From Candidatus Multivoradales bacterium (GTDB lineage Bacteria; Acidobacteriota; Thermoanaerobaculia; Multivoradales; J023), in contig CBDFLE010000006.1 of NCBI GenBank assembly GCA_965248925.1, positions 963,700 to 1,027,699 of the forward strand: DNA of 64,000 bases, given 5' to 3'. Both the position numbers and the translations under genes were made by a program. This document shows, piece after piece, positions 3,951-38,736 of the stretch (position 1 is its first letter; each line of letters begins with the position of its first letter). Under the pieces are notes generated by a model. The model was given only the letters and a program-made list of their open reading frames with translations, was not told the origin of the DNA and did not search any database.

Positions 3951-3954
3951 CATC

Positions 3955-6461: not shown

Positions 6462-7274
6462 TCAGTCCTGAGAAGCGATCTTGGCCAGTACATCAGGCCA
6501 AATCTCGCTCCAGCAACAACTGTGATCGAAGCCGGGATAGATCACCAGCTCGGCAGCTGAGAGCTCGGCCAGACGGCGGGACGCATCGGGCGGGATTCGC
6601 TCGTCGTCCTCACCCAACAGGTGCAACTGGCGGATGCTCGCCGGCAAGGGCGGACGGCGAGACGGGTCGAGGGAACCGAGCAGCGGGGTGTAGTGGTGCA
6701 GGTCGGCCCAGGCGACCAGGTCGAGATTGGCGGCGAGGGTGACCACGGCTCGCACCTTGGGCAACCGCTCGGCTAGCAACATGGCCAGCACACCACCGCC
6801 GCTGTAACCCACCAGCACGATCTGCTCGACCGGAGGCTCGGCTAGCAAACTGAGCAGGGCCTGTTCCATTGCTGCCACCACCCGCGGCGAGTAGCGCGCC
6901 AGGGTCCACAGTAAAGGGTCGCAATCGTCGGTCTGGCGCCAGCGGTTGTAGCACGGCCGGCCCAAGTAGAGACTGGGGGCGGGATCGAGTTGCATCAGCT
7001 CGAAGGCCAGGGCGCGGCGCGGGTGCGGATCGGCGGCGACCAGCTGTTCGCCAATCCAGGGTCGGCCATCGCCTTCGAGATAGACGTGTAGCCGTCGATC
7101 GGTGCTGCTCCCGCCTTTACGGTAGGCCACGTGGTGGAAGTCGCCGCCCACCAACACCAGGCGCTGATAGCCGGCGGCGGCGGCGCGAGCCTCGAGGTGG
7201 GCGGCAGGGGTAGGCGTCGTGACACAGCCAACGACGGCCAACGAACAAAGCAGGGTGGCGGCGCGCCGGTTCAT
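6462..7274 (-). CDS. Secreted alpha/beta-hydrolase lipoprotein.
   Basis: Signal peptide with lipobox (LAVVGC) and nucleophile elbow GYSGGG. Confidence 0.6.
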   Translation of the reverse strand: MNRRAATLLCSLAVVGCVTTPTPAAHLEARAAAAGYQRLVLVGGDFHHVAYRKGGSSTDRRLHVYLEGDGRPWIGEQLVAADPHPRRALAFELMQLDPAPSLYLGRPCYNRWRQTDDCDPLLWTLARYSPRVVAAMEQALLSLLAEPPVEQIVLVGYSGGGVLAMLLAERLPKVRAVVTLAANLDLVAWADLHHYTPLLGSLDPSRRPPLPASIRQLHLLGEDDERIPPDASRRLAELSAAELVIYPGFDHSCCWSEIWPDVLAKIASQD

Positions 7275-9253: not shown

Positions 9254-9283
9254 GCTGGTGGCCTCTCGATCGGTGGTCGAACT
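9000..9283. repeat. Direct repeat copy 2 (5' end of the kinase gene plus ~30 nt of leader), ~88-90% identical to 10444..10727.
   Basis: Manual nucleotide comparison of the two regions. Confidence 0.75.
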
Positions 9284-9522: not shown

Positions 9523-10413
9523 TCATTCCCCACCTCGTCTGGCCTCGTACGGGTCCGGTACAAAAACGATGCCGTAGGACTCGAAAACGACCCCGTCCCG
9601 GGCTCCCTTCCCTCGGAATTGAAGCTGAGTGAGCCATTGACCATAGTCGTCGGCGATCTCCTTTCGAGTCGGCGCATCCATCCCTCGAGGCGGCAGCCGA
9701 AAACCCCAATTCACACAGTAGATCGCCAGGTCTGCGGCCTGGACCGGGTAGGTCATGTCAGAGGAGACGAAAAACGGCGCCGGGACGATCCACGCCGACC
9801 GATAGCGGCCCGTCTTCGTTCTCCGGAAGTATCCCTGGAGGCGGCGGACGAAGCGGCGGTCCTCAGCCTTTTCCACTTCGTCCATCACCAGCAGACCGTG
9901 CTGTTTTTCCTGCTCCAGGAGATAGAAGTAGCGCTCGAGAAGGAAGACCTGATCCTTGCGAAGGTACTCCTCCGCCTTGAATGTGTCTGGCTTGATGACG
10001 CTGCGCGGGATCGCGGCGGCAAATAATTGAGCTTTGTGTTGTCTGAGCAGCTCAAAGATCCCCGTCGCCATCTCCAGGGACGCCTGTCCGTAAGCCGTGA
10101 ACTCCACCCGCAGCGGCGGCTTCTTCTCCAGCCCCTTGGTGAGAAATCCCCGGCAATGCTTGCGGCGCTCCTCGTCAGGCATCCTCGACCCCTGGGCCGC
10201 CCACTTGTAGCGATCCTTGTCCAAGAGCTTGCAGCCCTTGAGTTCCGTCCGGAACTGATGCAGCGTGGTCCCGAAGGAGTCCAGCTCCAGACGCTGCATG
10301 TCCTGTACAAATGACCACAGCTCCGAAGCATGCAACGCCACACCGCCCCTAACCTCGTAGGGCATGGTCCGGTGGTCGTGACCGCTCTCATCCAGGAAAA
10401 GCAAATAGCTCAT
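9523..10413 (-). CDS. DUF3800 domain protein.
   Basis: N-terminal MSYLLFLDESGHD and C-proximal QAADL motifs typical of DUF3800. Its start overlaps the stop of the upstream kinase-fragment ORF (ATGA). Confidence 0.65.
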   Translation of the reverse strand: MSYLLFLDESGHDHRTMPYEVRGGVALHASELWSFVQDMQRLELDSFGTTLHQFRTELKGCKLLDKDRYKWAAQGSRMPDEERRKHCRGFLTKGLEKKPPLRVEFTAYGQASLEMATGIFELLRQHKAQLFAAAIPRSVIKPDTFKAEEYLRKDQVFLLERYFYLLEQEKQHGLLVMDEVEKAEDRRFVRRLQGYFRRTKTGRYRSAWIVPAPFFVSSDMTYPVQAADLAIYCVNWGFRLPPRGMDAPTRKEIADDYGQWLTQLQFRGKGARDGVVFESYGIVFVPDPYEARRGGE

Positions 10414-10697
10414 CCGGCGATCTCCAAGGGCTCCTCGATCTCATCCTCGGCGACGCTGAAATCATAGAGCTGGGCGATCCCCGGATAGCGTAGCCGGGTC
10501 GCCACCTGCGCCTTGCGCAAGAAACGGGCCTGCAGATCAGGATCCTCGCGAAACTGGGAGCGGATCATCTTGAGCACCCGCAGTTCATCGAGAAAGACAT
10601 GGCGAACCTTATACACCGCCCCCATACCGCCCTCGCCCATCTTGGCGACGACCTCGTACTTGTGCTCGATTTCCGGGCTCAGGTGAAGCTCAGTCAA
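10410..10697 (-). pseudogene. Truncated duplicate of the Ser/Thr kinase N-terminus (95-aa ORF: Gly-loop + VAIK Lys + aC only). Acts as a leader ORF for DUF3800.
   Basis: Protein MTELHLSPEIEHKYEVVAKMGEGGMGAVYKVRHVFLDELRVLKMIR... is ~90% identical to aa 1-85 of the full kinase. TTG start. It ends 9 aa after the homology stops. Confidence 0.6.
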
Positions 10698-10727
10698 GGT
10701 GCCAAGCCCCTCGATCGGCGGTCGATA
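10444..10727. repeat. Direct repeat copy 1 (diverged duplicate of the kinase 5' end plus leader).
   Basis: Manual alignment to 9000..9283. Confidence 0.75.
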
Positions 10728-11169
10728 CCGCCACCCGTTTCGCTCTCAGCGGTTGCACCTAATTCGGGATTCACTTGCATCCGCTTGCCGAAAGAGGATC
10801 AAGCCTCTGCAACATCAGGACGTTGTTGTGGGGAGGACGCTGCAATCGGCCGCGACTCTCAGCCAACTCTTGCTGGTCGCCATTCGGCACTGATCTCACA
10901 GACTCCATCTTCGCCGGGCGCCGCATGGAGATCCGCCGAGTCACGACGGAACATCTCTGCAGATCACTGACGGTCTGGCGGGATGGGACTCGGTCTGGCG
11001 CACAGCATAGATCTTCTCACGACCGAAGATCGCCTGCACGAGGAACCGATAGAGCGACAGTGATCGCCTCAAGACGGTGGCCGAGAGCGGCGCAGAGCAC
11101 CCGCACAAGGCAACAAAAAGCCGGCTGCACACCTGGTTGCAACCGGCTTTCGAGGCTCCAGCGAACTTC

Positions 11170-20732: not shown

Positions 20733-22682
20733 TCAGCGCTGCAAGTAGGTGTAGCCCTCCAGGCCTTGGCAGTAGAGGTCGATCAGCTGCCGGGCCTGCG
20801 AACGATTCATGCGGCCGGCCTCGAGGGCACCCTCGATATTGCGACGCAGCTGGCGTAGCAGCTGGCGATCATCATACTCGACATAGGCCAACACCTCGCT
20901 GATGGTATCTCCCGGTACGACGTGCTCAATCCGGTATCCACCGTCCTGGTCGAGCGAGGCGTGCACGGCATGGGTGTCGCCGAATAGATTGTGCAGATCG
21001 CCGAGGATCTCCTGATAGGCACCCACCAGGAAAGCTCCCAGGTAGTAGGGCTGCTGGTCGAGGGAGTGCAGCTCGAGTTCAGGCTGGCCACCCGGCGGGC
21101 CAATGAAGCAGTCGACAACCCCGTCCGAATCGCAAGTTATGTCGGCCAGCACACCACGACGGCTGGGGAACTCATCCAGGCGATGGATCGGCATCAGCGG
21201 GAAAAGCTGGTCGATGGCCCAAGTATCGGGTAACGACTGGAACAAGGAGAAGTTGGTGAAGTAGATGTCCGCAAGCCGCCGGCCGAGAACCTCAAGCTCA
21301 CCGGCAGGTGCGGCGCAGGCGGCACGCTGCAACTGCCAAACCCGACGACAGAGGGCCTCGAAGATGTCTTCAGCCAGCACTCGCTCCTCAAGCGACAAGT
21401 GGCCAAGATTAAACAGGCTGAGGCATTCGTCGCGATACTGCAAGGCGTCGTGATACGCCTGGCGGCAGGTCGTCGCGTTGAGCCCATGAAAGGCCTGCAG
21501 CAGATGCACCAAGGGCGGCTCGGCGTCGGCGGGAGGTGCCGACGGGATCTCAACCCGCCGCGGCTGGCGCACGTCGAGGACTTCGAGCACTAACACCGCA
21601 TGGTGCGCCACCGTCGCTCGGCCAGCTTCGCTCACCACCACCGGATGGGGCACTCCCTCGGCATCACAGATCTCTTGAATACCGAAAATCACGCCGTTGG
21701 CGTACTCCTGCAGGGAGTAGTCGATCGACGAGCCCGCGCTCGACCGCGAGCCGTCGTAGTCGACCCCGAGACCACCGCCTACATCGAAGTAGCCCAAGGG
21801 CGCGCCGAGGCGGATCAACTGCACGTAGACCCGCGCCGCCTCACGCCAGGCTTCCTTGAGATTGCGAATCGAAGAGACTTGGCTACCGAGGTGAAAGTGC
21901 AACAGTTCGAGCCGGTCGAGCAAACCCCGACGGCGCAGCAGCGCCACCGCCTCGACCATCTCGCGAGCGCCGAGGCCAAATTTGGAGCGCGCACCCGCAG
22001 AAGCCTGCCAATGGCCCGAACCGCGGGTCGCCAGCCGGGCGCGCAGGCCAAGCCGCGGCGCAACCCCAGTTCGCTGAGCCACCTGCAATATCAGCGGCAG
22101 CTCTGCCGGCTTCTCCAGCACCAGGATGACCCGCGGCCCAAGTCGCGACGCCAGCAGAGCCGCCTCGATGTACTGCTCATCCTTGTAGCCGTTGCAGATC
22201 ACCAAAGCCTCAGGATTGTCGAGCAGCGACATCACCGCCAGCAGCTCAGGCTTGCTGCCGGCTTCCAGGCCATAGTGAAACGGCCGGCCGGCCGCCACCA
22301 GCTCTTCGACCAGAAAGCGGTTCTGATTCACCTTGATCGGGTAGACCGGGCGATAGGCAGCCTGGTAGCCATGGGCTGCGATGGCGTTGGCGAAGGCACT
22401 TTGAATCTCCGCCAACCGTGCCTTGAGGACATCGGAGAAGCGAATCAGCAGCGGCGGATCGATGCCCCGTTCGACGATCTCATCCACCAACCGTTTGAGA
22501 TCCAGCCCGCCACTACCGACCACCTCCGGCGCCACCTCGATGTGGCCGCGGGGGTTGATCGAGAAAAATCCTCGGCCCCAACTGTCGACCCGGTAGAGCT
22601 CGCGAGAATCTTTGATCGTCCAGCAGGCCTCGGCGGGGCGCGAAGACGGTCTTGCGGCATTGGCTCGGAGTCGGCTGGACAT
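20733..22682 (-). CDS. speA: Biosynthetic arginine decarboxylase.
   Basis: YPIKVNQ, HFHLGSQ, DVGGGLGVDYDGS and WTIKDSRELYRVDSWGRGFFSIN N-terminal signature. Start is ATG at 22682 or 22688. Confidence 0.9.
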   Translation of the reverse strand: MSSRLRANAARPSSRPAEACWTIKDSRELYRVDSWGRGFFSINPRGHIEVAPEVVGSGGLDLKRLVDEIVERGIDPPLLIRFSDVLKARLAEIQSAFANAIAAHGYQAAYRPVYPIKVNQNRFLVEELVAAGRPFHYGLEAGSKPELLAVMSLLDNPEALVICNGYKDEQYIEAALLASRLGPRVILVLEKPAELPLILQVAQRTGVAPRLGLRARLATRGSGHWQASAGARSKFGLGAREMVEAVALLRRRGLLDRLELLHFHLGSQVSSIRNLKEAWREAARVYVQLIRLGAPLGYFDVGGGLGVDYDGSRSSAGSSIDYSLQEYANGVIFGIQEICDAEGVPHPVVVSEAGRATVAHHAVLVLEVLDVRQPRRVEIPSAPPADAEPPLVHLLQAFHGLNATTCRQAYHDALQYRDECLSLFNLGHLSLEERVLAEDIFEALCRRVWQLQRAACAAPAGELEVLGRRLADIYFTNFSLFQSLPDTWAIDQLFPLMPIHRLDEFPSRRGVLADITCDSDGVVDCFIGPPGGQPELELHSLDQQPYYLGAFLVGAYQEILGDLHNLFGDTHAVHASLDQDGGYRIEHVVPGDTISEVLAYVEYDDRQLLRQLRRNIEGALEAGRMNRSQARQLIDLYCQGLEGYTYLQR

Positions 22683-22847
22683 CGGCATGGCCCTCGCGGT
22701 CTGGCGCCCTCGGAATCTGACCCACCGATCCGACCCTCCAGCAGAAGGAACCATCCCAGGAAAGGAGTGGGTTCTAGCACGCGGATGAACGGCCTCGGCG
22801 ACAAGATCCGGCAGTGATCGAAGTCTGGTCTGAGGCCCACGGCCCAC

Positions 22848-23151: not shown

Positions 23152-24645
23152 GTGATGCCGATCGAGACTGATATTTTCATCAGTTACGCCCACCTCGACA
23201 ACGAGGTCGTCGGAGCTGAGACCGAAGGGTGGATCTCATGCTTCCACCGCTCTCTGGAAGTCCGCTTGGCCCAGCTGCTGGGTCACAAGCCACGGATCTG
23301 GCGCGATCCCAAGCTGCAGGGAAACGACTACTTCGGCGACGAGGTCAGCGAGCAGCTGCCCCGCGTGGCCACCCTGATCCCGGTCTTGACGCCACGCTAT
23401 ATCCGCTCCGAATAGTGCCAGCGAGAGCTGGAGACTTTCCTGGCCGAAAGCCGCTACGCCGGCCGCGAGCGGATCGGCAACCAGGCCACGGTTTTCAAGA
23501 TCGTCAAGACACCGATCCCGATCACCGAGCAACCCACGCCGATCCAGGACCTGCTGGGCTACGACTTCTTCAAGCTCGACCCCAAAACTCTGCGAGTTCG
23601 CGAGCTCAGCCAATCACAGGAATCTGAATACCAGCGCGAATACTGGGCTCGCTTCGAAGATCTGGCACAGGACATCGGCAAGCTGCTCGAGCAGCTTGCC
23701 GACGACGACCCACCCTCTACCCCGGCAGCCGGCCAGAGAAACCGGGGCAAGGTCTATCTGGCCGACACCACCTTCGACCTGCGCGAGTCCCGCGACGCCC
23801 TGAAGCGCGACCTGCAGCAGCACTGCTACACCGTGCTGCCCGACCGCACTTTGCCACCGATCGCTCCGGAGCTCGAAGCTACGGTTGCTGCGGGGCTGGC
23901 CGAGACGGCCCTCTCGATCCACCCGATCGGCGCCAATTACGGCTTCGTTCCTGAAGGCGCCACTTGCTCGGTGCTGGAGATCCAGAATGAGCTGGCCATC
24001 GCTCGCCATATCGAGGGCGGCATGCAGCGGTTGATCTGGATCCCCTCCGATCTGGTGATCGAGGATCCGCGTCAGCTCGCTTTCGTCGACCTACTGCGCC
24101 AGGACACGCGTGCTCAAACCGGCGCTGATCTGATGGAGACCACGCTCGAAGACTTCAAGCTGGTCATGCATCAGAAGCTCGCCCCACCACCTGAAGACGA
24201 AGCTACCGATGGCGATAGTGATGGCGATGGCGACCCGCTGCAACGCGTCTACCTGATCTGCGATCGGCGCGATTTCGAAGCCGTCGCGACCCTTGAAGAC
24301 CGTCTCGTTGACCTTGGCTTCGAGGTCATCCTGCCGGCCTTCGACGGCGACGAGGCGCAGGTCCGCGAAGACCACCTGGAGAATCTCAAAATCTGTCAGG
24401 CGGTGCTGATCTTCTGGGGTCAGGCCAACGAGTTCTGGCTCCGCGCCAAGCTGCGCGACCTGCTCAAGATCGGTGGCTACGGTCGCCGCCAGCCCCTGGC
24501 TGCCAAAGCGATCTGGGTAGGCTCGCCAGCCAGCCCACGCAAGCAGCGTCTACGCACCCATGAGGCCGCAGTGATCCATGCCGAGGCCGGCTTCGACGAC
24601 GCCCTCCTCGGCCCATTCCTGGAACATCTGGCAACCCCCGAGTGA
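23152..24645 (+). pseudogene. TIR-domain protein (N-terminal TIR plus two further TIR/SLOG-like modules), interrupted by an in-frame TAG at 23413-23415.
   Basis: DIFISYAHLDNE TIR start. Frame 1 is continuous from 23152 to 24645 except for one amber codon. Read-through gives ...PRYIRSE[*]CQRELETFL, so the stop sits at the conserved Trp of the TIR SxWCxxEL motif (TGG to TAG). Confidence 0.7.
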
Positions 24646-25440
24646 TGAGCTGCGTTCAGCCAATCAACCTCGACAACCCGTTTCCGGGCCTGCGCGCCTT
24701 CGAACCAGAAGAGGAGCATCTGTTCTTTGGCCGCGAAGAGCAGGTCGACGAGCTGATGCGGCGACTGCGTCGCACCCGTTTCCTGACCGTCGTCGGCAGC
24801 TCGGGCAGCGGCAAATCGTCGCTGGTGCGCTCGGGATTGATCCCGGCGCTGCACAGCGGCTACATGGTGGAGGCCGGCTCGAGCTGGCGCATCACCGTCT
24901 TCAGGCCCGGCGACGATCCGATCGGCAACCTTGCCGAAGCGTTGGTCGATCCGGAGGTGATCGGTGATCCCGAGCAGCCGCCGGCGATGCTGCGCGGCAT
25001 CCTCGAAGCAACCTTACGACGCGGCAACCGCGGCCTGCTCGAGGCGGTTCGCCAGGCCAAGATGGGGAAGCACGACAACCTGATGTTGGTGGTCGATCAG
25101 TTCGAGGAGATCTTCCGCTTCAAGCGTAGCGCCAACAAATCGGCGGTGGGCGATGCCGCCGCCTTTCTCAAGCTGCTGCTTGAAGCCGCCAAGCCAGACG
25201 ATCTGCGAGTCTACATAGTGCTCACCATGCGCTCCGATTTCCTCGGTAGCTGTGTCGAATTCCACCGTTTGCCAGAAGCGATCAACCAAGGCCAGTACCT
25301 CGTACCGCGGATGACCCGTGACGAACGTCGGGCGGCGATCGAAAGCCCAGTGGCGGTAGCCGGTGGCGAGATCTCTCCCCGCCTGTCGCTGCGACTGCTC
25401 AATGATGTCGGTGACAATCCCGATCAGCTGCCGATCCTGC
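24645..25440 (+). pseudogene. STAND/NACHT-like P-loop NTPase, 3'-truncated (N-terminal ~265 aa only).
   Basis: NPFPGLRAFEPEEEHLFFGREEQVDELMRRL, Walker A VVGSSGSGKSSL, Walker B LMLVVDQFEE. Homology stops abruptly after DQLPIL, where the LPLLQHAL-type motif is expected. Translationally coupled to the TIR gene (TGATG). Confidence 0.65.
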
Positions 25441-26888
25441 CAGGGCAACGATCGCACCCTCTTTCTGATCGATGGAGTGGAGGAGAACGATCTGTGGTCG
25501 AACATCGCCTATCTTTCGCGCCAATACCCGCTGTCCGACATCGACCGCATCGAGGTGGTCTACGGCCCGGCATCGACCATGTATGGCCCCAATGCTTTCG
25601 TCGGGGTGATCTCGATCTTGACCAAGAACGCCCGCCAACTAGTCGCCGCGGGCGAACGCATGGCGCTCCGCGCCGAGGCCGGCGGTGGTAGCTGGTCGAC
25701 TTCCTGGGTCGACGCCACGGTGGCGGCGCGCAGTGACTCTGGCAGCGTCGACTTCACCCTCACCGGCCGCTTCTACAGCTCGGAGGAGTTTGACCGCTCG
25801 AGCTTTGCCGACTGGGACTACGACCCGTCCTTCTACGCTCCGGAGAACGACGCGGTGCGCGGTGGCAGCAATTACCGCGGCCTCAACACCGAGCAGACCG
25901 AGCGCGCCCGCGACGATCTCAAGCTGGTGCTCGGCGGACGCCTCGACAACAACGACGCCGGGGCCCGGGTCGGGGTGCTCGACGCCGCGGGAAATCCGCT
26001 GGTGGTGACCGGCGCTATGGCAGTGAGTTCAATCCCCGCCTGGCGGTGGTCTACAGCCCCGGTGATCTGGTCCTCAAAGCGATTTACGCAGAGGCCTTCA
26101 AGGACGCCTCGAATTTCAACCGGTACGCCACCGCCGCCGGCATTCGGGACCTGCAGAACCCGTTTCTCAAGCCTGAGAAAATGGAGAATTTTGAGCTCGC
26201 CCTGGGCTGGGAGGGGGCGGCCCGGTGGAGCACTCAAACCAGCATCTACCAGGCAACCTACAGTGGCGCGGTCGGCCAAGTGCGGGTGCCGTTTCAGGGC
26301 GGCAGCACCGTCCAAAACCAGAATGTCGGCGCTCTCAAGATCCACGGACTGACGACCTCCGCGCGGTACCGGCGCGAGGGCTTCGGACTGTTCGCCAACT
26401 ACAGCTGGACCGAGCCGAAGAACCTCCAGCCCAGGGACAGCGCGGGCGACCGCTACCTCGACCCCGACGGCCGGCCAATCGCTGAGGTGCGGCTTGGCGA
26501 CATCGCCGAGCACCGTCTCAACCTGGGCCTCGACCTGGCATGGCGGGTGCACTTCGAGTTCGACCTGCGGCTGTCATGGGTCGGTGACCGCGACACCTTC
26601 GATGTTTGCAGCAACTGCCTGCCAGGTGGAGGCACCAGAGACGGCGAGCCTCCAGCGATGGCGACTGTCGGCAATCCGCTGCGCGAGATCGACGCCTATC
26701 TCGATGTCAACGCCACTCTGACCTGGAAAGATCCACTGCCCGCCAGCCGCCTGCAGCTGGTGCTGCGGAATCTGCTCGACAGCGAGTACGAGCACCCCGG
26801 AGTCCGCAGCGCCGATGGCAGGGTGTTCGCCACCAGCCAGCCGCAGAACGAGCGCAGCATCTTCCTCCGCTGGGCGGTGGGATTCTGA
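25440..26888 (+). pseudogene. TonB-dependent receptor remnant: 5'-truncated (starts mid plug domain) with an internal frameshift near 26000-26045.
   Basis: DRTLFLIDGVEENDLW...IDRIEVVYGPASTMYGPNAFVGVISILTK plug motifs with no signal peptide or TonB box. Frame switch before EFNPRLAVVYSP. C-terminal LRWAVGF. Confidence 0.65.
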
Positions 26889-26912
26889 GCCGGTGGAACC
26901 ACGAAGAAATCC

Positions 26913-27594
26913 GTTGGGCAGCCGGCCAGCGACTCGCGTCGACTTCATCAAGACTTCGCCGAGCGGCAACATCACGGCGCTGGTGCTACCGCTGGTGAAG
27001 CGCTCGCGGCAGGTCGAGATCGCCCATCGCCTGCTGCGCTACGACCCGCAGCTCGAGCAGGTCGGATTCGTCGAGCCCGCAGCGGGCAAAGCTATGGCCC
27101 GACTACAGATGATGGGCGGCGAACTGTGCGGCAACGGCGCCTGTGCGCTGGCCTGGCATCTGCGATCCCAGGTCGAACCAGTGGCCGAAGGTAGGCGCCG
27201 CCTGCGGCGGGCGATCATCAGCCCCCACAACCTGCCGTCTCTAGCCACTTTTCTCAACCACTGCGGCCATCTGGTAGAGCACTCCTACCCTCAGCTGCGG
27301 GGCTACGGCGAGCCCCGGTTGGCGGTGTGTGCGCAGCTCAGCGGCGCTGCCGATCTACACTACCGCATCGATCCAGCCTGCCTCGATCAACAGCTGGGGA
27401 GCGGCCAGGAAGGCGAAGACCATCTGCTGATCGATGGCACCAACCCGGCCGCTCTGCAGACCGCCCAGGCGCGGGGCTTCTACCCGGTGGCCCTACTGCC
27501 CTACACCGAAGACAGCGCCACTACGCACCTGCTGGGGTTACCCGCCAAGCGTCTCGCACTGCGCTATTCTGGGCCGCCCGCAAGGGTCGACTGA
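26913..27594 (+). CDS. DapF/PhzF-like epimerase-fold protein (hypothetical).
   Basis: VDFIKTSPSGNITALV and MMGGELCGNGACALAWHL resemble DapF FxKMHGxGNDF and CGNG active-site motifs. Putative TTG start. Confidence 0.35.
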
Positions 27595-29257
27595 TGCGCT
27601 TCAGCTTCCGGCGCCAGCTTCTCGAATTATTCGAGATTCGCTCTGGCGAAGGCCTTGCGATCGGTCTGCTACTGCTCTACTCGTCGTTGTCGGGCATTGT
27701 CGTAGGGTTCTATTTCACGGTCGCCAACGCCGCTTTCCTGAGCCAGTTCGACCTCTCCCAACTGCGCCAGATCCTACCCTTCGCCTATATGGCTTCGGGG
27801 GTCGTGGCAGCGCTGGCGGCGGCTCTTTTCGCTACCGCCGAGCATCGTCTCTCGCTACCCACGCTGCTGCTTGGCAATACGGCCTGCTTATTTTTCGTCG
27901 TGGGGGGCTTCGCGGTGGGATTCGGGCGCTCCAGCGGCGACCTGCTCAGCATCGCCAGCATTGTCTTCGTCGTCCCCATCCTGACCTTGCTCGATCTCGG
28001 CTTCTGGGGGTTTGGCCGGAGGTCTGCTCGACCTCGAACAGAGCAAGCGCCTACTCGGCGTCGTCAGCTCGGGCGAGGTGCTGTTAGCAGCGCTGAGCTT
28101 CCTCGCCGTGCCGTTGCTCTTCGACGCTGGCTTCGGCGCCGTGCTGCTGCTGACTCTTGCCACCGCCGCCTTACTCGCGACCCTACTCCTACTGCCGGTG
28201 ATCTTCGCCTGCCACCGGCAACGCCTCGAGGACAGCGGCGAGACTCTCGCCGAGCGATCCGCCGATGAGCCGGACGCGGCAGTCCAGAACAGCGCGGCGC
28301 GACGCTACCTAGCCCTGATGACCGCGGTCACCTTGCTGTTCATCCTGACGCAGTATTTTGTCGACTACAGCTTCCTAACCGAGATCCGCCAAACGATTCC
28401 GCAGCGGGGGGAGCTGACCCGCTTTCTAGGTTGGTTCTTCTTCGCCACTAAGACTCTTGAGTTGATCGTCAAGACCGTCGGGCTCGGCCGCCTGCTGCGC
28501 CATTTGGGCCTGTTCGGCGCCGGTGGCCTGCTGGCGCTGCTGGCCCGCAGCCCGATCCTCGGCGGCCTGGGGCCACGGCTGATGATCATGGCTTCGCTGC
28601 TCTGTGCCTGGTTGGCGGCCAGCTTGGCACTCTTTAGCGAGTATCGCGAACACCTCCTGGAGGCCCTCGACCGGCAAACTAGCCAGCTGCTCAACTCTCC
28701 GCTGGAGACCATCCGCAATCAGCTGGCGGGCGCCGAGCGCGATGAGCTGAGACTAGTGCTCAACGTGCTGCAGCGAGTCGAGCCGGAGTTCTTCAACCGT
28801 TCGCTGGCCGAGCTGCTGAGATCGCCGAAGCTGGCCAGCCGGAGCGAAGCGGTGGAGAGGGTGATCGAGCTGCGGCTGCTCCGAGCAGGGATAGAGCGGT
28901 TCGAGGCGGCTGAGAGCGATCTTCAGCTGCGCCAGCGGGCCGCGGAAGCCCTGCGCATCCTTAGACCAGGCCGAGCACTCTTCTAACACCCTCGAGAAAG
29001 TCACGGCACTGGCCGCCGGGGCGCTGCTCGAAACGGTAGGCAGTGCTCCCCAGGAGCTGTTCCTCAAGCTGCTCGCGGATGCCGACGTCCTGGGGGAGAT
29101 CGCGGTATTCGAATCCGGCAAACGGGTTGCCAACGCCACCTCTATCGGCCCAAGCCGTCTGCTGCGGGTCGACCGCCAGCAGCTCACCGACCTGCTGGCA
29201 GACCACTTCGAGATGCTACCGACATTTATCCAGGTCATCACCCAACGCCGGGCCTGA
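27594..29257 (+). pseudogene. Npt/TLC-like MFS transporter - HEAT repeat - partial cNMP-binding domain gene, disrupted by two frameshifts (~28010 and ~28985).
   Basis: Three consecutive frames carry protein-like sequence: MRFSFRRQLLELFEIRSGEG...(TMs); ...LFSEYREHLLEALD...HEAT...; ...DVLGEIAVFESGKRVANATSIGPSRLLRV... First shift is at a G5 run (ttctgggggttt). Confidence 0.5.
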
Positions 29258-29367
29258 AGGATCCCCCGGAGGGTCCCGATGAGACCCAGGAGCACGAGAT
29301 CGAAGCTGACTATCGCCACGATCCACGGGATTTGATTGACACCCTCGAGCGCTTCAATGCCTTCGAG

Positions 29368-29745
29368 CTATCCGCCGACCTCTTCGGTCGTGGCGTCATC
29401 AGCGCTGGCGGCAAAGCTGGCCACCGCCTCGGCTTCGTCGTCGTAGGATTCCAACAGCGGTAGGACCTGGCTGATCTCGAGCACGTCGCGAATCCGCCCA
29501 GCGGTCGACAGCAGCTTGAGCCGCGAGCCAAAACGGCCCGCCAGGCGATAGCCGGCCACCAACTCGCCAACCCCGGCACTATCGATACGGCTGAGTCCGG
29601 ACATGTTGAGCAGGATCTGCTTCCACTCGGCGGCAACCAGTTCGTTGATCACCTCGCGCAGCATCTCCTCAGGGCCACCGGCGATCAGACGGCCTTCGAG
29701 ATCGACGATCAGAGTTTTGCCGGACTGACGAAGTTCTACGTGCAT
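29368..29745 (-). CDS. STAS-domain anti-sigma-factor antagonist (SpoIIAA-like).
   Basis: LIVDLEGRLIAG...LNMSGLSRIDSAGVGELVAGYRLAGRFGSRLKL. Confidence 0.7.
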   Translation of the reverse strand: MHVELRQSGKTLIVDLEGRLIAGGPEEMLREVINELVAAEWKQILLNMSGLSRIDSAGVGELVAGYRLAGRFGSRLKLLSTAGRIRDVLEISQVLPLLESYDDEAEAVASFAASADDATTEEVGG

Positions 29746-29871
29746 AAGCTAAGCTCTCCTGGGTTCGCGGAGGCCGCAGGATAGCACGGCCAGAGGGCGG
29801 TGAAGCGATCGTCAGGGCACCGTCACAACAACCTCGGCGGCAGAGGGAATGTTGAGCAAGGGAGAGGGTCG

Positions 29872-30170
29872 ATGGCCGAGCGAGCAAGCGAGCAAGACAC
29901 CGCCGTAGGCGATTTCATGAGGCGGAATTTCCGCCACTTCAACGCCCGCTCTGTGGTCGAAGCGGCCGCCGCTTGGGTTGCTCAGCTAGACCAGGGCAAC
30001 CACATGTTCCTTACCTTGGCGGGGGCCATGAGCACTGCTGAAATCGGCCTACAACTGACCGAGATGATCCGCCGCGGCAAAGTCCACGGCATCTGCTGCA
30101 CCGGCGCCTACCCCGAGGAAGAGCTGTTCAACCTAGTCCCCCACGACCACCATGTGGGCTTCCGGATTGA
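29872..30170 (+). pseudogene. Deoxyhypusine synthase-like gene, 5' fragment only (~100 aa), paralogous to 37756..38736.
   Basis: MAERASEQDTAVGDFMRRNFRHFNARSVVEAAAAWVAQLDQGNHMFLTLAGAMSTAEIGLQLTEMIRRGKVHGICCTGAYPEEELFNLVPHDHH, then homology is lost although the ORF continues as low-complexity junk. Confidence 0.6.
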
Positions 30171-30217
30171 TCGAGAAAAACCCTCGGCCCCAGCGGTCGA
30201 CCGAGTAGGGATCGAGC
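30163..30217. repeat. ~55-nt segment ~85% identical to speA 5' coding region (22556..22610), at the breakpoint of the DHS-like fragment.
   Basis: attgatcgagaaaaaccctcggccccagcggtcgaccgagtagggatcgagcgag vs gttgatcgagaaaaatcctcggccccaactgtcgacccggtagagctcgcgag. Minus-strand translation gives ...DRWGRGFFSINP. Confidence 0.55.
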
Positions 30218-30376
30218 GAGCTGGCGGTCGCTGCTTGTGGCGGCTCGAGGGCGGATTGATCGACCGTCTACCTGGCTGCGTAGCATTAGGATACGATCCC
30301 CCCCACCAAACGCCTTATGAACACCAGAATCTTGGACTTCTTGCCGATGAACATTGCTGCAGATTGGCCGCGGCGC

Positions 30377-32101
30377 ATGGCCGGCGCCGCGGCGCTCGGG
30401 CTGTGGGCGTTGGCCTGCTCGGTAGAGTCTCCGGCGCCCGGCGGCGGCGACACCTCACATGCGCCGTGGTTCGTCGAGGTGCAGGACACCTCGGGACTCG
30501 ACTTCCGCCACCAGCACGGCGGCAGCGGCGAGCGCTACATGATCGAAACCATGACCGGCGGCGCCGGCTTGCTCGACTTCGACAACGATGGTTGGCTCGA
30601 CGCCTACCTGGTGCAGAGTGGGCCGCTGCCGGGTTTCGCCGATCAGACACCGCTACCCAACCAGCTCTATCGCCACCGCGGCGACGGGATCAACTTCGAA
30701 GACGTCACCGAGGGCTCGGGAGCCGGCGACACCGGCTACGGCATCGGCACCTGCTTCGGCGACATCGACAACGACGGCTGGATCGACATCTACGTCACCA
30801 ATCTCGGTCAGGACACGCTGCTGCGCAACCGCGGCCTGAGCGACGGCCGAGTCACCTTCGAAGACGTCACCGCGGCGGCCGGCATCGACAGCCCGGCCTA
30901 TGGCTCGAGCTGCGCTTTCGCCGACTACGACCGCGACGGCTGCCTCGACCTGTTCGTGGTCAACTTTGTCAACTTCACCCTTGAGAACCACCTGCGCTGC
31001 GGCGCCGAGAAGTTGCGCACCTACTGCTCGCCCGACGTCTACGACGGCCTGCCCGACCAGCTCTACCGCAATCACTGCGACGGCTCAGGCGGTTTCGACG
31101 ACGTCTCCGAGGCCGCCGGGGTGGTCAACCACGACCCCGAGCAGGGCAAGGGGTTGGGGGTGGTTTGGACCGACTTCGATGACGACGGCGACCTCGACAT
31201 CTACGTCGCCAACGACTCGACTCGCAACTTCCTCTACAGCAACCGCGGCGACGGCACCTTCGAGGACGTGGCGATCTTCGCCGGCGCCGCCTTCAACGAC
31301 CGCGGCCTGACCGAAGCCAGCATGGGGCTCGACGCCGGCGACTACGACGGCGACGGCCGCCTCGACCTGTTCATGACCCACCTCGACTTCGAGTCCAACA
31401 CCCTCTATCGCAACGCCCCCAACAACCTCTTCCTCGACTCCAGCGCCATGACCGGGGTGGTGACGCCGAGCGCCACGCGGGTCGGCTTCGGAACCAACTT
31501 CCTCGACTTCGACCACGATGGCGACAACGATCTCTTCGTCGCCAACGGCCATATTCTCGACAACGCCAAGGAGCGTAATCCGACCCTCGACTACGAGCAG
31601 CGCAACCAGCTGCTGGAGAATCGCGATGGCCGTTTCGTCGACGTTTCGGGGCAGGCCGGCGAGCATTTCACGATCCGCCGGGTCGGCCGGGCCTCGGCCA
31701 CCGGCGACCTCGACAACGACGGCGATCTCGATCTGCTGATCGCCAACTCCAACCGCGAGGTCGTGGTGCTGCGCAACCAGCGCGAGCTGATCGGCGGCGG
31801 GCGCCGCTGGCTGATGCTGCGCCTGCTGAGCCGCCACGGTGGCCGCGACGCGATCGGCAGCCGAGTGCGGGTCATTGCCGGCGATCGGATCTGGGTCGAC
31901 GAGATCCACAGCGGCGCCAGCTACCTCGCCCAGAGCGATCTGCGGGTCCATTTCGGACTGGGAGAGATCGATCGCATCGACCGGATCGAGATCCGCTGGC
32001 CGGAGGGGGAAATCCAGCAGCTCGATGGCGCCGGCTTGGAGCTCGACCGGCTGCACACCCTCCGCCAGCCGGCTGCGCCAGCCGCGGAGGAAGGCCGATG
32101 A
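30377..32101 (+). CDS. CRTAC1-family protein (FG-GAP/VCBS repeats + ASPIC/UnbV domain), lipoprotein.
   Basis: Repeated DxDxDGxxD FG-GAP motifs (FDNDGWLD, DIDNDGWID, DLDNDGDLD) and C-terminal UnbV-like segment. Lipobox LWALACS. Confidence 0.75.
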   Translation: MAGAAALGLWALACSVESPAPGGGDTSHAPWFVEVQDTSGLDFRHQHGGSGERYMIETMTGGAGLLDFDNDGWLDAYLVQSGPLPGFADQTPLPNQLYRHRGDGINFEDVTEGSGAGDTGYGIGTCFGDIDNDGWIDIYVTNLGQDTLLRNRGLSDGRVTFEDVTAAAGIDSPAYGSSCAFADYDRDGCLDLFVVNFVNFTLENHLRCGAEKLRTYCSPDVYDGLPDQLYRNHCDGSGGFDDVSEAAGVVNHDPEQGKGLGVVWTDFDDDGDLDIYVANDSTRNFLYSNRGDGTFEDVAIFAGAAFNDRGLTEASMGLDAGDYDGDGRLDLFMTHLDFESNTLYRNAPNNLFLDSSAMTGVVTPSATRVGFGTNFLDFDHDGDNDLFVANGHILDNAKERNPTLDYEQRNQLLENRDGRFVDVSGQAGEHFTIRRVGRASATGDLDNDGDLDLLIANSNREVVVLRNQRELIGGGRRWLMLRLLSRHGGRDAIGSRVRVIAGDRIWVDEIHSGASYLAQSDLRVHFGLGEIDRIDRIEIRWPEGEIQQLDGAGLELDRLHTLRQPAAPAAEEGR

Positions 32102-33576
32102 CCCGCTCGCTGAGGGTGCTTTGCGCCGCGGCCCTGCTGCTCGCTGCCTGCGCTGCCGATCCATCGCCGCCGCCGGCCTACCAGCTGACGCCGGAAGAGC
32201 AAGCGCTGATGGCCCGGATCACCGAGCTGCAATCGCTGCGCGAGTACGATGAAGGCATCGCCGCGGCCGAGGCTTTTCTCGCCACCCATCCCGACGCCCG
32301 CCGGATCCACTACGCGATAGGCGTGTTGCACGGCCTGTCGGACCGGCACCGGCAGGCGCTGGCAGCTTTCGAGCAAGAGCTGGCCATCGACCCGACTCAT
32401 CTGGCGAGCTATCGCGGCAGCGCCACGGCACATACCTTGCTCGGCCAAGCAGAGGCCGCTATCGAGAAGCTCCGTCAGGCATTGCAGATCGCTGCCGATC
32501 GTCCCGAGGTCATGCTGGATCTTGGTAGGGCACTTTCGAACTTCGGCCAACTCGACCAAGCCGAGCCGCTACTGCGCCAGGCGTCTCACAGCGGTGGCGC
32601 AGCAGCCCGGGTCGAGCTCGGCATCCTGCTGCGCCGCCAGGGCCGGCTCGAGGAGGCGGCGGAGGCCTTCCGCAAGGCTCTGCAAGAGGATCCTCGGCAG
32701 CTCAGTGCGATGTCCAACCTCGGCCAGACTTTGAGCGCGCTGGGTCGAGCCGCCGAGGGCCAAGCTCTCTTGCGGCATCACGCCCGGCAGGCATCCCTGC
32801 ACGACCGACTCGATATCTATCAGCGCAGTAGCCTGCTCGAGGGCGCGACAGCGGCCAACTTCCTGCAATTGGCGATACTGCAAATCCGCTCCCGCAAGAC
32901 CGCCGAGGCCGTCGAGTCCTATCGCCGAGCCCTGGAGCTGGATCCTCGATCGACGACCGCCACCCTCGGTCTGGCGGCTCTCTTCCGCCAGAACGGACAA
33001 GCCGGCGAGGCGACCAAGTGGACGGTCCACACCCTGCTGATCGATCCGCAAAACAGCAAGGCGCACTTTCTCCTCGGCATGCTCCGCTTGTCGAAGGGGC
33101 AGCTCGATCTGGCGCTACAAGCTTTCGCGACTTCGCGCCAGCACGAACCTTGGCAGGCCGAGGCCTACTGGCGAACCGGTAACGTCCTTCGATCCCGCTC
33201 CCAGCTGGACCAGGCAGAGCAACACTACCGTCAAGCGCTGGCCTTGAATCCAGAATCAGCGCCAGCACTCTTCGGCATCGGCTTCAGCCAAATGTTGCGA
33301 GGCGAACCAGACCTGGCCATCGCCAACTTACGCCACGCGGCCGCACTGAATAGCTCGGACGCCGACAGTCAGCTGCTGCTCGGCCTGGCGCTGGCCGCCA
33401 GCGGTGACCCTGCGGGGGCAGAAGATATCTGGCGCTCGGCCGCCACCCTGCACCGACTCGATCTGCTGACCGGCAAGACCCTCGAGCAGCTACTGGCACC
33501 GTTCTCGGCCTTGCAAGCCCTCGACGCCACCGCCGCCGGCTTGGAGCGCTACCGGGCGCTGTTGGCGCCGGGGTAG
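32098..33576 (+). CDS. TPR-repeat lipoprotein.
   Basis: Signal peptide LLLAACA, multiple TPR units. Overlaps upstream and downstream genes. Confidence 0.75.
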   Translation: MTRSLRVLCAAALLLAACAADPSPPPAYQLTPEEQALMARITELQSLREYDEGIAAAEAFLATHPDARRIHYAIGVLHGLSDRHRQALAAFEQELAIDPTHLASYRGSATAHTLLGQAEAAIEKLRQALQIAADRPEVMLDLGRALSNFGQLDQAEPLLRQASHSGGAAARVELGILLRRQGRLEEAAEAFRKALQEDPRQLSAMSNLGQTLSALGRAAEGQALLRHHARQASLHDRLDIYQRSSLLEGATAANFLQLAILQIRSRKTAEAVESYRRALELDPRSTTATLGLAALFRQNGQAGEATKWTVHTLLIDPQNSKAHFLLGMLRLSKGQLDLALQAFATSRQHEPWQAEAYWRTGNVLRSRSQLDQAEQHYRQALALNPESAPALFGIGFSQMLRGEPDLAIANLRHAAALNSSDADSQLLLGLALAASGDPAGAEDIWRSAATLHRLDLLTGKTLEQLLAPFSALQALDATAAGLERYRALLAPG

Positions 33577-33585
33577 GGCCGAGCG

Positions 33586-35844
33586 GTGTTGAGGCGGTAC
33601 AGCGCCTGCCTGCTGGCGGCGGCCCTGCAGATCTCCTGCGGTGAAGCCGAAGACCGCTCCCAGCCTACGGGCTCTCACCTCCCAGCGACCTCACCGGCCC
33701 GGCCAGCCGTGGTAGAGCCCCATCGACCCGCCCCCATCCGACCGCCGGGCAATGCGGATCTGCCCCCCTTCTCGGAGCTGCTTTCCGAGGCCATCGAAGC
33801 CCCCGACCCGATGCGCTCGCTGACTCTGGGCCGGCAACGGGTCGCCCTGGTCCGGGACCGCCTGGATCGCGCCGGCAAGGCGCGCGAGCGTTTTCAGCTG
33901 ACCGTCGCGCTGGGCCGCGAGCAGCTCTGGGCTGGTCAGACCGAGGAGGCGATCAAGACCTTTCGCGGGGCGCTCGAGATGCCGGCGGCGACCGAGCATG
34001 CCGAGGAACGCCGCCAAGTGCGCAAATGGGTGGCGATCGCCTACCTCCGCCTGGGCGAGGAAGAGAACTGCCTGGCGCTGCACCGGGCGGGCTCGTGCAT
34101 CTTGCCGATCGCCGAGGACGCTCGCCACGTCGAGCAACGCGGCTCAAAGGCCGCCATGGCGGAGCTGATCGCGCTGCTCGCCGAGAAGCCCACCCCTGGG
34201 CTGCGCTGGCTGCTGAACCTGGCGGCGATGACCCTCGGCGAGTATCCCGACGGGGTTCCCGCCGAGCACCGCCTCCCCCGCCGCCTGCTGGCGGGCGAAA
34301 CCAGCGAGTTGCCGCGATTCGTCGACCGGGCGGCGGAGTTCGGGCTCTCGGCAGCTGGACTCTCGGGCGGCGTCGTCACCGAGGACTTCGACGGCGACGG
34401 CCGGCTCGACGTGATGGTGTCCTCATGGGGGCTGCACGATCCGCTACGGTTGTTCCGCAACCAGGGCAATGGCACCTTCGCCGAGGCTGGCACCGCGGCC
34501 GGTCTCGGAGATGAGCTGGGCGGCTTGAACCTGATCCACGCCGACGACAACAACGACGGCCATCCCGACGTGCTGGTGCTGCGCGGCGCCTGGTTGGGCG
34601 CCGCCGGGCTGCATCCCAACTCGCTGTTGCGCAACCACGGCGACGGCACCTTCAGCAACGTCACCCTAGAAGCCGGCCTGCTCGGCTACGCCCCGACCCA
34701 GACCGCGGCTTGGGCCGACTACGACGGCGATGGTTGGCTCGATCTGTTGATCGGCAACGAGGCCGGCAGCGGCGCCTACACACCCTGCCAGCTGTATCGC
34801 AATCACGGCGACGGCACCTACTCGGACGTCGCGCCGCAGCTCGGGCTGGACATCTCGGCCTTCGTCAAAGGGGTCGCCTGGGGCGACTACGACGACGACG
34901 GCTGGCCTGATCTCTACCTGTCGATCTTCGGCCAGCCCAACCGGCTGTTGCGCAACCAAGGTCCGGCGGCCGGTTTTCGCTTTGCCGACGTCACCCGGGC
35001 CGCCGGGGTGGCGCAGCCGCTCAAGAGCTTCGCCACCTGGTTCTGGGACTACGACAACGACGGCCTGCTCGACCTGCTCGCCGCTTCCTACTCGGGCCTC
35101 AGCGCCGAGTCGCTCGACGAGGTGGTCCGCGACCTGCTCGGCGAAGAGACCGCGGGCGAGCGGCCGCGCCTCTACCGCAACCGCGGCGACGGCACCTTCG
35201 AAGACCACACCGCGGCGGCCGGCCTCGACACCGTGCTGCTGGCGATGGGCGCCAACTACGGCGATCTCGACAACGACGGCTTTCTCGACGTCTACTTCGG
35301 CACCGGCGAGCCGAGCTTCTCGACCCTGGTGCCCAACCGCATGTTCCACAACCGAGCCGGCCGCACCTTTGACGACGTCTCGCTCGCCGCCGGCTTCGGC
35401 CATCTGCAGAAGGGCCACGCCATCGCCTTCGCCGACCTCGACAACGACGGCGACCAGGATGTCTACGCGGTGATCGGCGGCGCCTATGCCGGCGACGTCT
35501 ACCCCGATGCGGTGTTCGTCAACCCGGGCAGCAGCAACCGCTGGCTGACCCTGCGCCTCGAAGGCAGGCGCGCCAACCGATCGGCGATCGGCGCGAGGGT
35601 CGAGGTCCGAGTGGTGGCGCCCGGCGGCGAACGTTCGATCTTCCGCACCGTCAGCACCGGTGGCAGCTTCGGCTCGTCGAGCTTGCAGCTGGAGATCGGC
35701 TTGGGCTCGGCCGCGGAGCTGCTGGAGGTGAACATTCGCTGGCCGCTTCCGGGTCTGGGCCGGCAACGCTTCACCGATCTCGAGAGCAATACGATCTACC
35801 GCTTGATCGAGGGCGAGCAGGAGGCGATTCGAGAGCTACCCTAG
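33586..35844 (+). CDS. CRTAC1-family protein (FG-GAP/VCBS + ASPIC/UnbV) with N-terminal TPR-like region.
   Basis: FG-GAP motifs (FDGDGRLD, YDGDGWLD, YDDDGWPD, DLDNDGFLD, DLDNDGDQD) and UnbV-like C-terminus. Confidence 0.75.
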   Translation: MLRRYSACLLAAALQISCGEAEDRSQPTGSHLPATSPARPAVVEPHRPAPIRPPGNADLPPFSELLSEAIEAPDPMRSLTLGRQRVALVRDRLDRAGKARERFQLTVALGREQLWAGQTEEAIKTFRGALEMPAATEHAEERRQVRKWVAIAYLRLGEEENCLALHRAGSCILPIAEDARHVEQRGSKAAMAELIALLAEKPTPGLRWLLNLAAMTLGEYPDGVPAEHRLPRRLLAGETSELPRFVDRAAEFGLSAAGLSGGVVTEDFDGDGRLDVMVSSWGLHDPLRLFRNQGNGTFAEAGTAAGLGDELGGLNLIHADDNNDGHPDVLVLRGAWLGAAGLHPNSLLRNHGDGTFSNVTLEAGLLGYAPTQTAAWADYDGDGWLDLLIGNEAGSGAYTPCQLYRNHGDGTYSDVAPQLGLDISAFVKGVAWGDYDDDGWPDLYLSIFGQPNRLLRNQGPAAGFRFADVTRAAGVAQPLKSFATWFWDYDNDGLLDLLAASYSGLSAESLDEVVRDLLGEETAGERPRLYRNRGDGTFEDHTAAAGLDTVLLAMGANYGDLDNDGFLDVYFGTGEPSFSTLVPNRMFHNRAGRTFDDVSLAAGFGHLQKGHAIAFADLDNDGDQDVYAVIGGAYAGDVYPDAVFVNPGSSNRWLTLRLEGRRANRSAIGARVEVRVVAPGGERSIFRTVSTGGSFGSSSLQLEIGLGSAAELLEVNIRWPLPGLGRQRFTDLESNTIYRLIEGEQEAIRELP

Positions 35845-37387: not shown

Positions 37388-37582
37388 TCAATCGACCCTG
37401 AAGCTCTGCAGCTCCACCGGGATCGAGCAACCGGTGGCGGTGGCTTCAGAAATCTGCCGCCAGGCGGCGGCGATCAGCTCGTTGATCACTCCGCGAAACA
37501 TCTCCTCAAGGCCGCCGGCGACCCGACGGCCTTCGAGGTCGACGATCAAGGTGCTGCTGGACTGACCAAGCTCTACCTGCAT
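37388..37582 (-). pseudogene. Chimeric 64-aa ORF: N-terminal 45 aa of a STAS antagonist paralog fused to the C-terminal tail ...ATGCSIPVELQSFRVD of a secreted-protein paralog.
   Basis: MQVELGQSSSTLIVDLEGRRVAGGLEEMFRGVINELIAAAWRQ is ~85% nt-identical to 29620..29745. The last 65 nt are ~85% identical to 35922..35987. Confidence 0.5.
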
Positions 37583-37643
37583 GGGCTATGCTCCCCGGGC
37601 GCCGCAGGGTGTCTTGCAAACCGTGCCAAGGTCTGCGGAAACC

Positions 37644-37695
37644 GCAAGATCGCACTGCAAGATCGCACTGCAAGATCGCACTGCAAGATCGCACT
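37644..37695. repeat. Perfect 13-bp tandem repeat x4 (gcaagatcgcact) in the intergenic/promoter region upstream of the DHS-like gene.
   Basis: Read directly: accgcaagatcgcactgcaagatcgcactgcaagatcgcactgcaagatcgcactgcgg. Confidence 0.85.
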
Positions 37696-37755
37696 GCGGA
37701 AGCGCCGCGACAGCCGCCGGCGGCAGATGGAAAGCCGACGTGAGGAGTCCGCCCC

Positions 37756-38736
37756 TTGAGCGACGAAAATATCTCAGTGCGCGACTTCATGCGGCGCAAC
37801 TTTCGCCACTTCAACGCCCGCTCGGTGGTCGAGGCGGCCGACGCCTGGGTCGCTCAGCTGCGCCAGGGCAACCACATGTTTCTCACCCTGGCTGGGGCGA
37901 TGAGCACCGCCGAGATCGGCCTCCAGCTGGCCGAGATGATCCGCCGTGGCAAAGTCCACGGCATCTGCTGCACCGGCGCCAATCTCGAGGAAGACCTGTT
38001 CAACCTGGTCGCCCACGACCACTACCAGCGGATCGCCGATTGGCGTTCGCTGACCGCCGGGAATGAGGCCGAACTCGCCGAGCACGGCCTCAACCGGGTG
38101 ACCGACACCTGTATCCCTGAAGTCCAGGCGATGCGCAAGATCGAGCAGCTGATCGCCCTGCGGTGGCACGATGCCGAGGCCGCTGGCCAGCGCCACCTGC
38201 CGCACCAGTTCGTCTATCAGCTGCTACTCAGCGGCGACCTCGAGGAGGCTTACCAGATCGATCCCAACGACTGCTGGCTATTGGCGGCGGCGCAGCGGGA
38301 CCTGCCCCTCTTCGTCCCCGGCTGGGAGGATTCGACCCTCGGCAACATGTTCGTCGCCCGCCATCTGAGCGGCGAGATCGCCAATCTCGACACCGTCAAA
38401 GGGGGCTTGCACTACATGCAGGAATTGGTCGATTGGTACCGCCGCGAGACGGCGGAGCGATGTCTCGGGTTTTTCCAAATCGGTGGCGGAATCGCCGGCG
38501 ATTTCCCAATCTGCGTGGTGCCGCTGATCCAACAGGATCTGGACCAGGAGATTGGCTTGTGGTCCTACTTCTGCCAGGTCAGCGACAGCACCACCTCCTA
38601 CGGCTCCTACAGTGGCGCGGTGCCGAACGAGAAGATCAGCTGGGGCAAACTGGCGCCGGAGACGCCGAAGTTCATCATCGAGAGCGACGCTTCGATCGTC
38701 GCGCCGCTGGTCTTCGCCTGGGTCCTGGCAAGCTAG
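37756..38736 (+). CDS. Deoxyhypusine synthase-like (DHS/homospermidine-synthase family) protein.
   Basis: FMRRNFRHFNARSV...TLAGAMSTAEIG...KVHGICCTGANLEEDLFNL. TTG start with GAGGAG RBS. Confidence 0.75.
   Translation: MSDENISVRDFMRRNFRHFNARSVVEAADAWVAQLRQGNHMFLTLAGAMSTAEIGLQLAEMIRRGKVHGICCTGANLEEDLFNLVAHDHYQRIADWRSLTAGNEAELAEHGLNRVTDTCIPEVQAMRKIEQLIALRWHDAEAAGQRHLPHQFVYQLLLSGDLEEAYQIDPNDCWLLAAAQRDLPLFVPGWEDSTLGNMFVARHLSGEIANLDTVKGGLHYMQELVDWYRRETAERCLGFFQIGGGIAGDFPICVVPLIQQDLDQEIGLWSYFCQVSDSTTSYGSYSGAVPNEKISWGKLAPETPKFIIESDASIVAPLVFAWVLAS

Follow-up and report, generated by a model that had tools for sequence, protein, structure and literature searches.

What has become of a gene whose reading frame runs unbroken on either side of a single stop codon, when that stop falls exactly at a residue that every relative of the protein retains? 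The question is raised by a TIR-family gene in the window, the whole 64-kb stretch of DNA analysed here, in which the initial annotation saw a plausible case of a toxic effector disabled by a point mutation within a defence locus in decay, naming amber suppression and sequencing error as alternatives. Between 23152 and 24645, frame 1 of the forward strand has no internal stop apart from a TAG at 23413–23415, and translation around the stop reads ...LTPRYIRSE*CQRELETFLAE..., so the single amber in an otherwise open frame is as that annotation reported. In our judgement the locus is probably a recently pseudogenised two-gene operon of the conflict (defence) type, in which a TIR effector gene was paired with a gene for an nSTAND1-WD40 protein. 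The features on which the argument turns are the following.

20733–22847, minus strand: speA, an intact arginine decarboxylase gene, divergent from the TIR gene and the anchor of synteny with the orthologous locus L001
23155–24645, plus strand: TIR-family effector gene, 496 aa with codon 87 read as Trp, interrupted by one amber
23155–23712, plus strand: module 1, the TIR domain and a helical extension, aa 1–186
23413–23415, plus strand: the in-frame TAG at codon 87, TGG in the orthologue and Trp in all aligned homologues
23425–23427, plus strand: GAG codon for E91, family-invariant and aligned with the catalytic Glu of RUN1, four codons 3' of the stop
23749–24180, plus strand: module 2, alpha/beta, aa 199–342, with a weak match to DUF4062 (TIR-like) (PF13271, AlphaFold model)
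24244–24642, plus strand: module 3, flavodoxin-like alpha/beta, aa 364–496, no Pfam match
24645–25440, plus strand: nSTAND1 NTPase remnant, the first 266 codons including Walker A and Walker B (Pfam, tblastn)
25440/25441, unstranded: breakpoint, where nucleotide identity to L001 drops over a few bases from ~90% to chance level and nSTAND1 is joined to the middle of a TonB Plug domain

That the interrupted frame is a real gene is not in doubt, as a chance open reading frame is ruled out by homology, GC3 periodicity and synteny, all of which continue past the stop. More than 1000 homologues of ~500 aa align with 99–100% of the restored protein, before and after the stop, at E-values down to 1e-278, and GC3 periodicity keeps the TIR frame both before and after the TAG. 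The start is most likely the ATG at 23155, as judged from the closest orthologue (P0001), whose sequence begins MPIETD, and the gene terminates with a TGA at 24643–24645. No promoter-like or terminator-like excess was found around the TIR gene, and Rfam gave no match in the 64-kb window.

The position of the stop is equally clear. The stop column is Trp in 21 of 21 homologues in one alignment (A1) and in all of the ~67 in another (A2), the family motif at this point being S-[E/D]-W-C-x-[R/K]-E in both, and the earlier placement of the amber exactly at the conserved Trp of the TIR motif therefore holds. Its proposed origin by one G>A change is borne out by the orthologous locus L001, from a JGI metagenome, where the codons around the site (TCC GAA TGG TGC CAG CGA) are identical except for the TGG itself, such that the window differs at codon 87 by a single TGG to TAG transition. 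A degenerate DNA pattern that spans the site and allows either purine (R) at the variable position had no match in metagenome contigs, and when genome and metagenome contigs were scanned under the guidance of protein sequence, the relatives recovered were at ≤50% identity and none was closer. Nor did searches for identical copies of the 86-aa fragment and of two intact proteins from the window return any match. In the assembled sequence, then, the lesion has the marks of a pseudogene: it lies at a conserved position, is absent from the orthologue and has no alternative decoding.

Read with Trp at codon 87, the 496-aa product has a Pfam TIR_2 match at aa 7–106 (E 3.6e-11; 44 bits, the cut-off being 28; the orthologue P0001 scores 49.5 bits) and has the flavodoxin-like fold that defines the TIR domain (PF13676; STIR clan). 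As modelled by AlphaFold with a pLDDT of 86, the orthologue falls into three alpha/beta modules, at aa 1–186, 199–342 and 362–490. The ~497-aa product of a TIR domain plus two TIR/SLOG-like modules in the initial annotation is sustained as to its length and its three modules. Module 2 has DUF4062 matches that stay below the PF13271 cut-off of 24.7 (E 0.21 and 12 bits in the window; E 0.033 and 15 bits in P0001), and module 3 matches nothing in Pfam. PF13271 matches are precomputed for many homologues of the TIR protein, and the Glu of the module 2 sequence Q-N-E-L-A, which aligns with the DUF4062 catalytic Glu, is replaced in several family members. The Glu of the first module is another matter, as E91 is invariant in 67 sequences. 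The family profile aligns S-E-W-C-x-R-E-L with S-R-W-C-L-D-E-L of grapevine RUN1, and an entry for a RUN1 mutant (PDB 7s2z) carries Ala at the column of the family E91. The amber thus appears to lie four codons 5' of a putative catalytic Glu, in a family for which homology predicts NADase activity.

The second gene of the pair has been damaged more severely. The TGA of the TIR gene overlaps the ATG of nSTAND1 in the sequence TGATG (24643–24647), in agreement with the translational coupling to a STAND NTPase gene that had been suggested. The protein is recognised by Pfam with an E-value of 1.5e-68 across profile positions 1–239 of 379 only; it has neither the full nSTAND1 (PF20703) module nor a C-terminal sensor, and is what is left of a genuine member of the family. 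In L001, by comparison, the orthologous partner spans nSTAND1 profile positions 1–373 and continues into WD40 repeats, and when it is used as a tblastn query against the window only its aa 1–273 are found. Since tblastn finds the missing part nowhere else in the window, inversion or translocation within the window is rejected. Immediately 3' of the breakpoint the sequence encodes the Plug domain of a TonB receptor in a different frame, and no insertion sequence, inverted repeats or meaningful direct repeat that would betray a mobile element or repeat was seen at 25440.

Intact relatives indicate what the operon would have encoded. L001 shares the order speA (minus strand), TIR, nSTAND1 with the window, and its TIR gene is 85% identical in amino acids and 84% in nucleotides. 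nSTAND1 also lies directly 3' of the TIR-family gene in nine of the 12 distant genomic loci, and at L012 the two genes are on one contig, non-adjacent. Loci of the family (L001 and L002–L028) occur in Acidobacteriota, filamentous cyanobacteria (Scytonema, Tolypothrix, Leptothoe), Bacteroidota and Thiothrix. The intact partners are proteins of 865–1109 aa with a complete 379-position NTPase module (PF20703 E 1e-94 to 1e-102), a coiled coil and a WD40 propeller, and in the partners from L001 and L007 the NTPase domain begins at about aa 10–12, with no N-terminal adaptor domain recognised. Searches of PADLOC-DB 2.0 gave no match for the TIR protein at E ≤ 0.01, only PDC-S66 for P0001 (E 9.5e-4), and P-loop or repeat-level matches only for the full-length nSTAND1 partners. 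Taken together these comparisons describe a conserved two-gene TIR/nSTAND1-WD40 system of the kind predicted to act as NTP-dependent conflict systems, with homology pointing to a role in defence.

How such a system might have worked, and how it was lost here, can be sketched. In intact relatives the first gene would encode an effector of ~500 aa, an N-terminal TIR NADase followed by two Rossmann-like modules, and the second, translationally coupled to it, would encode a P-loop NTPase of the nSTAND1 type that also carries a coiled coil and a WD40 propeller. If NLR/STAND systems are a guide, a trigger may be sensed by the propeller, upon which the NTPase would oligomerise and the TIR effectors would be clustered, so that the active site containing Glu91 hydrolyses NAD+ and the cell stops. 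In the lineage represented by the window, a G>A change would have turned Trp87 into an amber codon, with translation ending after 86 residues and reaching neither Glu91 nor modules 2 and 3. Past the amber, the frame offers no start codon before a GTG at 23833, in the middle of module 2. A deletion or rearrangement would account for the loss of nSTAND1 after codon 266 and for its junction with a TonB-receptor remnant that had already decayed. Both lesions would be young, leaving the operon non-functional: with an effector that ends at residue 86 and an NTPase that has lost its C-terminal two-thirds, the system as assembled is dead.

The setting is one of more extensive decay. Lesions in the window, comprising frameshifts, truncated domains and gene fragments, are clustered at 23.4–30.3 kb, where older gene remnants adjoin the nSTAND1 fragment and run from 25441 to 30219. 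They are, in order:

25441–26888, plus strand: remnant of a TonB-dependent receptor that has lost its 5' end and is frameshifted near 25995–26015 (Plug profile positions 55–107/107 in frame 1, barrel positions 230–436/436 in frame 0)
26815–27594, plus strand: CntK-like histidine-racemase ORF in which only ~80 N-terminal profile positions are recognisable
27594–28986, plus strand: gene for a polytopic membrane protein with a +1 frameshift in GGGGGTTT at 28007–28014, marked by a GC3 frame switch
29036–29257, plus strand: fragment of a cyclic-nucleotide-binding domain in a third frame (profile positions 33–89/89)
29887–30153, plus strand: 5' fragment (89 codons) of a deoxyhypusine/homospermidine-synthase (DS) gene, 84% identical in amino acids to the intact copy at 37756–38736
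30142–30219, minus strand: speA-like fragment of 26 codons that abuts the DS fragment and resembles aa 81–106 of speA with 61% aa identity

The CntK-like ORF is probably degraded, and a one-base deletion in the membrane protein gene restores the sequence ...LGFWGLAGGLLDLEQSKR.... Together with the truncated partner gene, this clustering of lesions supports the proposal of a point-inactivated effector in a decaying defence locus. The remnants between 25441 and 29257 may be those of a former opine-metallophore or uptake cluster, and the speA-like fragment lies 7.6 kb from the intact speA. Over the rest of the 64-kb window, the long ORFs with Pfam matches contain full domains and have neither frameshifts nor in-frame stops, and it is from their integrity that we take the sequence not to be generally error-prone; the intact genes include speA, those for an 814-aa TonB receptor, TrkA and glycosyltransferases, an ORF for a 1111-aa C25 peptidase, and a plsX-fabD-fabG-fabF group. 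For this survey Pfam scans of ORFs were used, as segmentation of the whole window into strand and frame by GC3 only proved too noisy.

The age of the stop bears directly on whether it is real. Compared with L001, the TIR gene has a dN/dS of 0.157, the same as speA (0.157) and close to the nSTAND1 remnant (0.155), and the part of the TIR gene 3' of the stop has a value of ~0.18. When derived residues were polarised with 65 outgroup sequences, 38 were assigned to the window and 35 to the orthologue, and besides the stop the only changes in the window at conserved columns were L>M and L>F, both conservative. Neither dN/dS nor the polarised changes contain a signal of relaxed selection by which the stop could be dated. 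It follows that the stop and the nSTAND1 truncation are very recent, or that the base is wrong in the assembly, and the intact look of the TIR gene fits a very recent mutation and a base-call or consensus error equally well.

The possibility that the organism does not carry the TAG at all, and that its TIR gene is intact, the base having been miscalled in sequencing, polishing or consensus building or taken from a minor allele in the metagenome, is the alternative that we take most seriously, although we consider it unlikely. It draws on the same absence of damage, with no excess of derived or radical changes in the TIR gene, and on the nearby frameshift in GGGGGTTT, a homopolymer of the sort in which long-read or 454-type indels typically arise. 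The abrupt passage from nSTAND1 to TonB sequence might in principle be a chimera made during metagenome assembly. The lesion at codon 87 is a substitution, however, and not a homopolymer indel, and the other Pfam-matched ORFs are unbroken over ~57 kb, which implies a low overall error rate. Errors would also have to coexist with a partner gene that has been destroyed independently and with neighbouring remnants whose multiple lesions exceed what errors can produce.

A genuine stop might have been favoured by selection rather than simply tolerated, and it is tempting to speculate that once nSTAND1 was lost a free TIR effector became harmful, such that a knock-out 5' of the catalytic Glu rescued fitness. 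This reading, which is a variant of the explanation preferred here with selection and an order of events added to it, strikes us as improbable. In its favour are the occurrence of two young lesions in one operon and the elimination by the stop of the catalytic Glu together with everything 3' of it; in addition, the toxicity of deregulated TIR NADases is established for SARM1 and for bacterial TIR effectors, and NADases of the DUF4062 family cause abortive infection (bioRxiv 10.64898/2026.05.01.722283). Yet STAND NTPases normally activate their effectors and do not restrain them, so that loss of the NTPase should leave the effector inert. Nor does the site of the stop call for selection. The mutation, a G>A transition, is of the most frequent kind. 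The TIR gene offers 45 routes to nonsense by transition, of which 16 lie within its eight Trp codons, and five of those eight Trp residues are invariant in the family; with Trp codons making up 16 of the 45 targets, a conserved Trp is an unremarkable place for a stop, and mutational-target size by itself accounts for its position. Were selection nevertheless responsible, the implication would be that the STAND protein of this widespread two-gene family holds its TIR effector in check and does not merely activate it.

Finally, a full-length or conditional TIR effector might still be made if the amber were read by a suppressor tRNA, under an alternative code or through programmed read-through, and such decoding would fit the full conservation of the sequence 3' of the stop. 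It can be dismissed as exceedingly improbable, because TAG is a normal terminator here, ending at least six intact genes in the window (those for DS, DcuC, TrkA, PlsX, a TonB receptor and an FG-GAP protein; in DS, DcuC and PlsX the Pfam match extends to the C-terminal end of the profile), because the window contains no tRNA gene, and because no conserved gene in the window has a further in-frame TAG, the amber is unique to the window, with Trp encoded at this site in the orthologue and in every homologue, the STAND gene beside it has been truncated in any case, and near-cognate read-through of UAG, which inserts mostly Gln or Tyr, would mostly not supply the invariant Trp.

Several other features of the window are recorded here in their own right. 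A direct repeat of 258 nt with 90% identity occupies 9000–9257 and 10444–10701, and the genes associated with it lie on the minus strand at 7271–9253, 9523–10413 and 10410–10745. A gene for a Ser/Thr kinase-caspase fusion has its 5' end repeated on the other side of a DUF3800 gene, an arrangement such as one crossover might leave on inserting DUF3800. Its kinase part is matched by the PADLOC PD-T4-6 and mad6 kinase models and its caspase part matches the NCBIfam family 'caspase, EACC1-associated type', and these genes look like a second conflict-system locus. Beside them is a stretch of lower GC at ~3000–6500 (53–60% compared with ~64–65%) with a tyrosine recombinase/integrase gene at 5022–6197 and no tRNA nearby, and this stretch may mark one end of an integrated element. 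The DS fragment belongs to a reciprocal partial duplication of a divergent pair, STAS (minus strand) and deoxyhypusine-synthase-like (plus strand), at 29368–30153 and 37451–38736: the first copy has an intact STAS gene and 89 DS codons, the second 44 STAS codons and an intact DS gene, and the copies, with 73–85% nt identity, are separated by ~7.3 kb containing FG-GAP/ASPIC, TPR and FG-GAP/ASPIC genes. Paralogous FG-GAP/ASPIC (UnbV) arrays, each with a TPR protein, lie at 30317–35844 and 43722–47246, and their three FG-GAP genes are mutually 32–38% identical.

By itself the finding is a minor one, as it adds one more dead defence operon, with a stop at a conserved Trp as mutation bias predicts. 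There is a practical warning for annotation in that gene callers will report an 86-aa ORF, a 270-aa ORF and a chimeric nSTAND1/TonB ORF where one operon has broken down. The wider interest lies in the family to which the operon belongs, which is large (more than 1000 members in Acidobacteriota, cyanobacteria, Bacteroidota and metagenomes), conserved and missing from current catalogues of defence systems. Furthermore, TAG in the window set against TGG in an orthologue that is 85% identical provides a natural loss-of-function pair for the catalytic motif.

How does the family compare with systems already described? The best NCBIfam match of the N-terminal module is FxsC of the FxSxx-COOH system (NF040588; E 1.5e-14), and membership was rejected since the score of 54 bits falls well short of the 130-bit cut-off and no Fxs partners are present. 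Among TIR NADases, which include those of plants (RUN1, RPS4, RPP1), SARM1 and bacterial TIR effectors, the protein here differs in having a free-standing N-terminal TIR domain followed by two Rossmann-like modules, and whereas plant TNLs have TIR fused to STAND, here TIR is encoded separately from its STAND partner. The activity of the family is a prediction from sequence, and in the window copy the domain is cut by the stop ahead of the Glu. DUF4062 was recently demonstrated to act as a TIR-like NADase (bioRxiv 10.64898/2026.05.01.722283; 10.64898/2026.06.25.731849), and the likeness to Swarozyc/KpSwz and TEP1 (bioRxiv 10.64898/2026.05.01.722283) and to Evangelion (10.64898/2026.06.25.731849) consists of the weak PF13271 matches of module 2, which in the window and P0001 are below the gathering threshold, in a family where the column of the catalytic Glu is not strictly conserved. 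Swarozyc and Evangelion are, moreover, single-gene systems with other auxiliary domains, in contrast to the two genes found here; in eukaryotes, DUF4062 is found beside a NACHT/STAND NTPase and WD40 repeats, as it would be in this operon. A further parallel is with the nSTAND1 proteins that Kaur, Burroughs, Iyer and Aravind named among predicted conflict systems (eLife 2021, PMC8195603), and with antiphage proteins of the STAND/NLR type (Avs, bNACHT); the points of likeness are an nSTAND1 NTPase that ends in a repeat sensor, here WD40, and a TIR effector encoded in one operon with it. What sets the present family apart from these is that effector and NTPase are separate polypeptides, with no N-terminal adaptor recognised on the NTPase.
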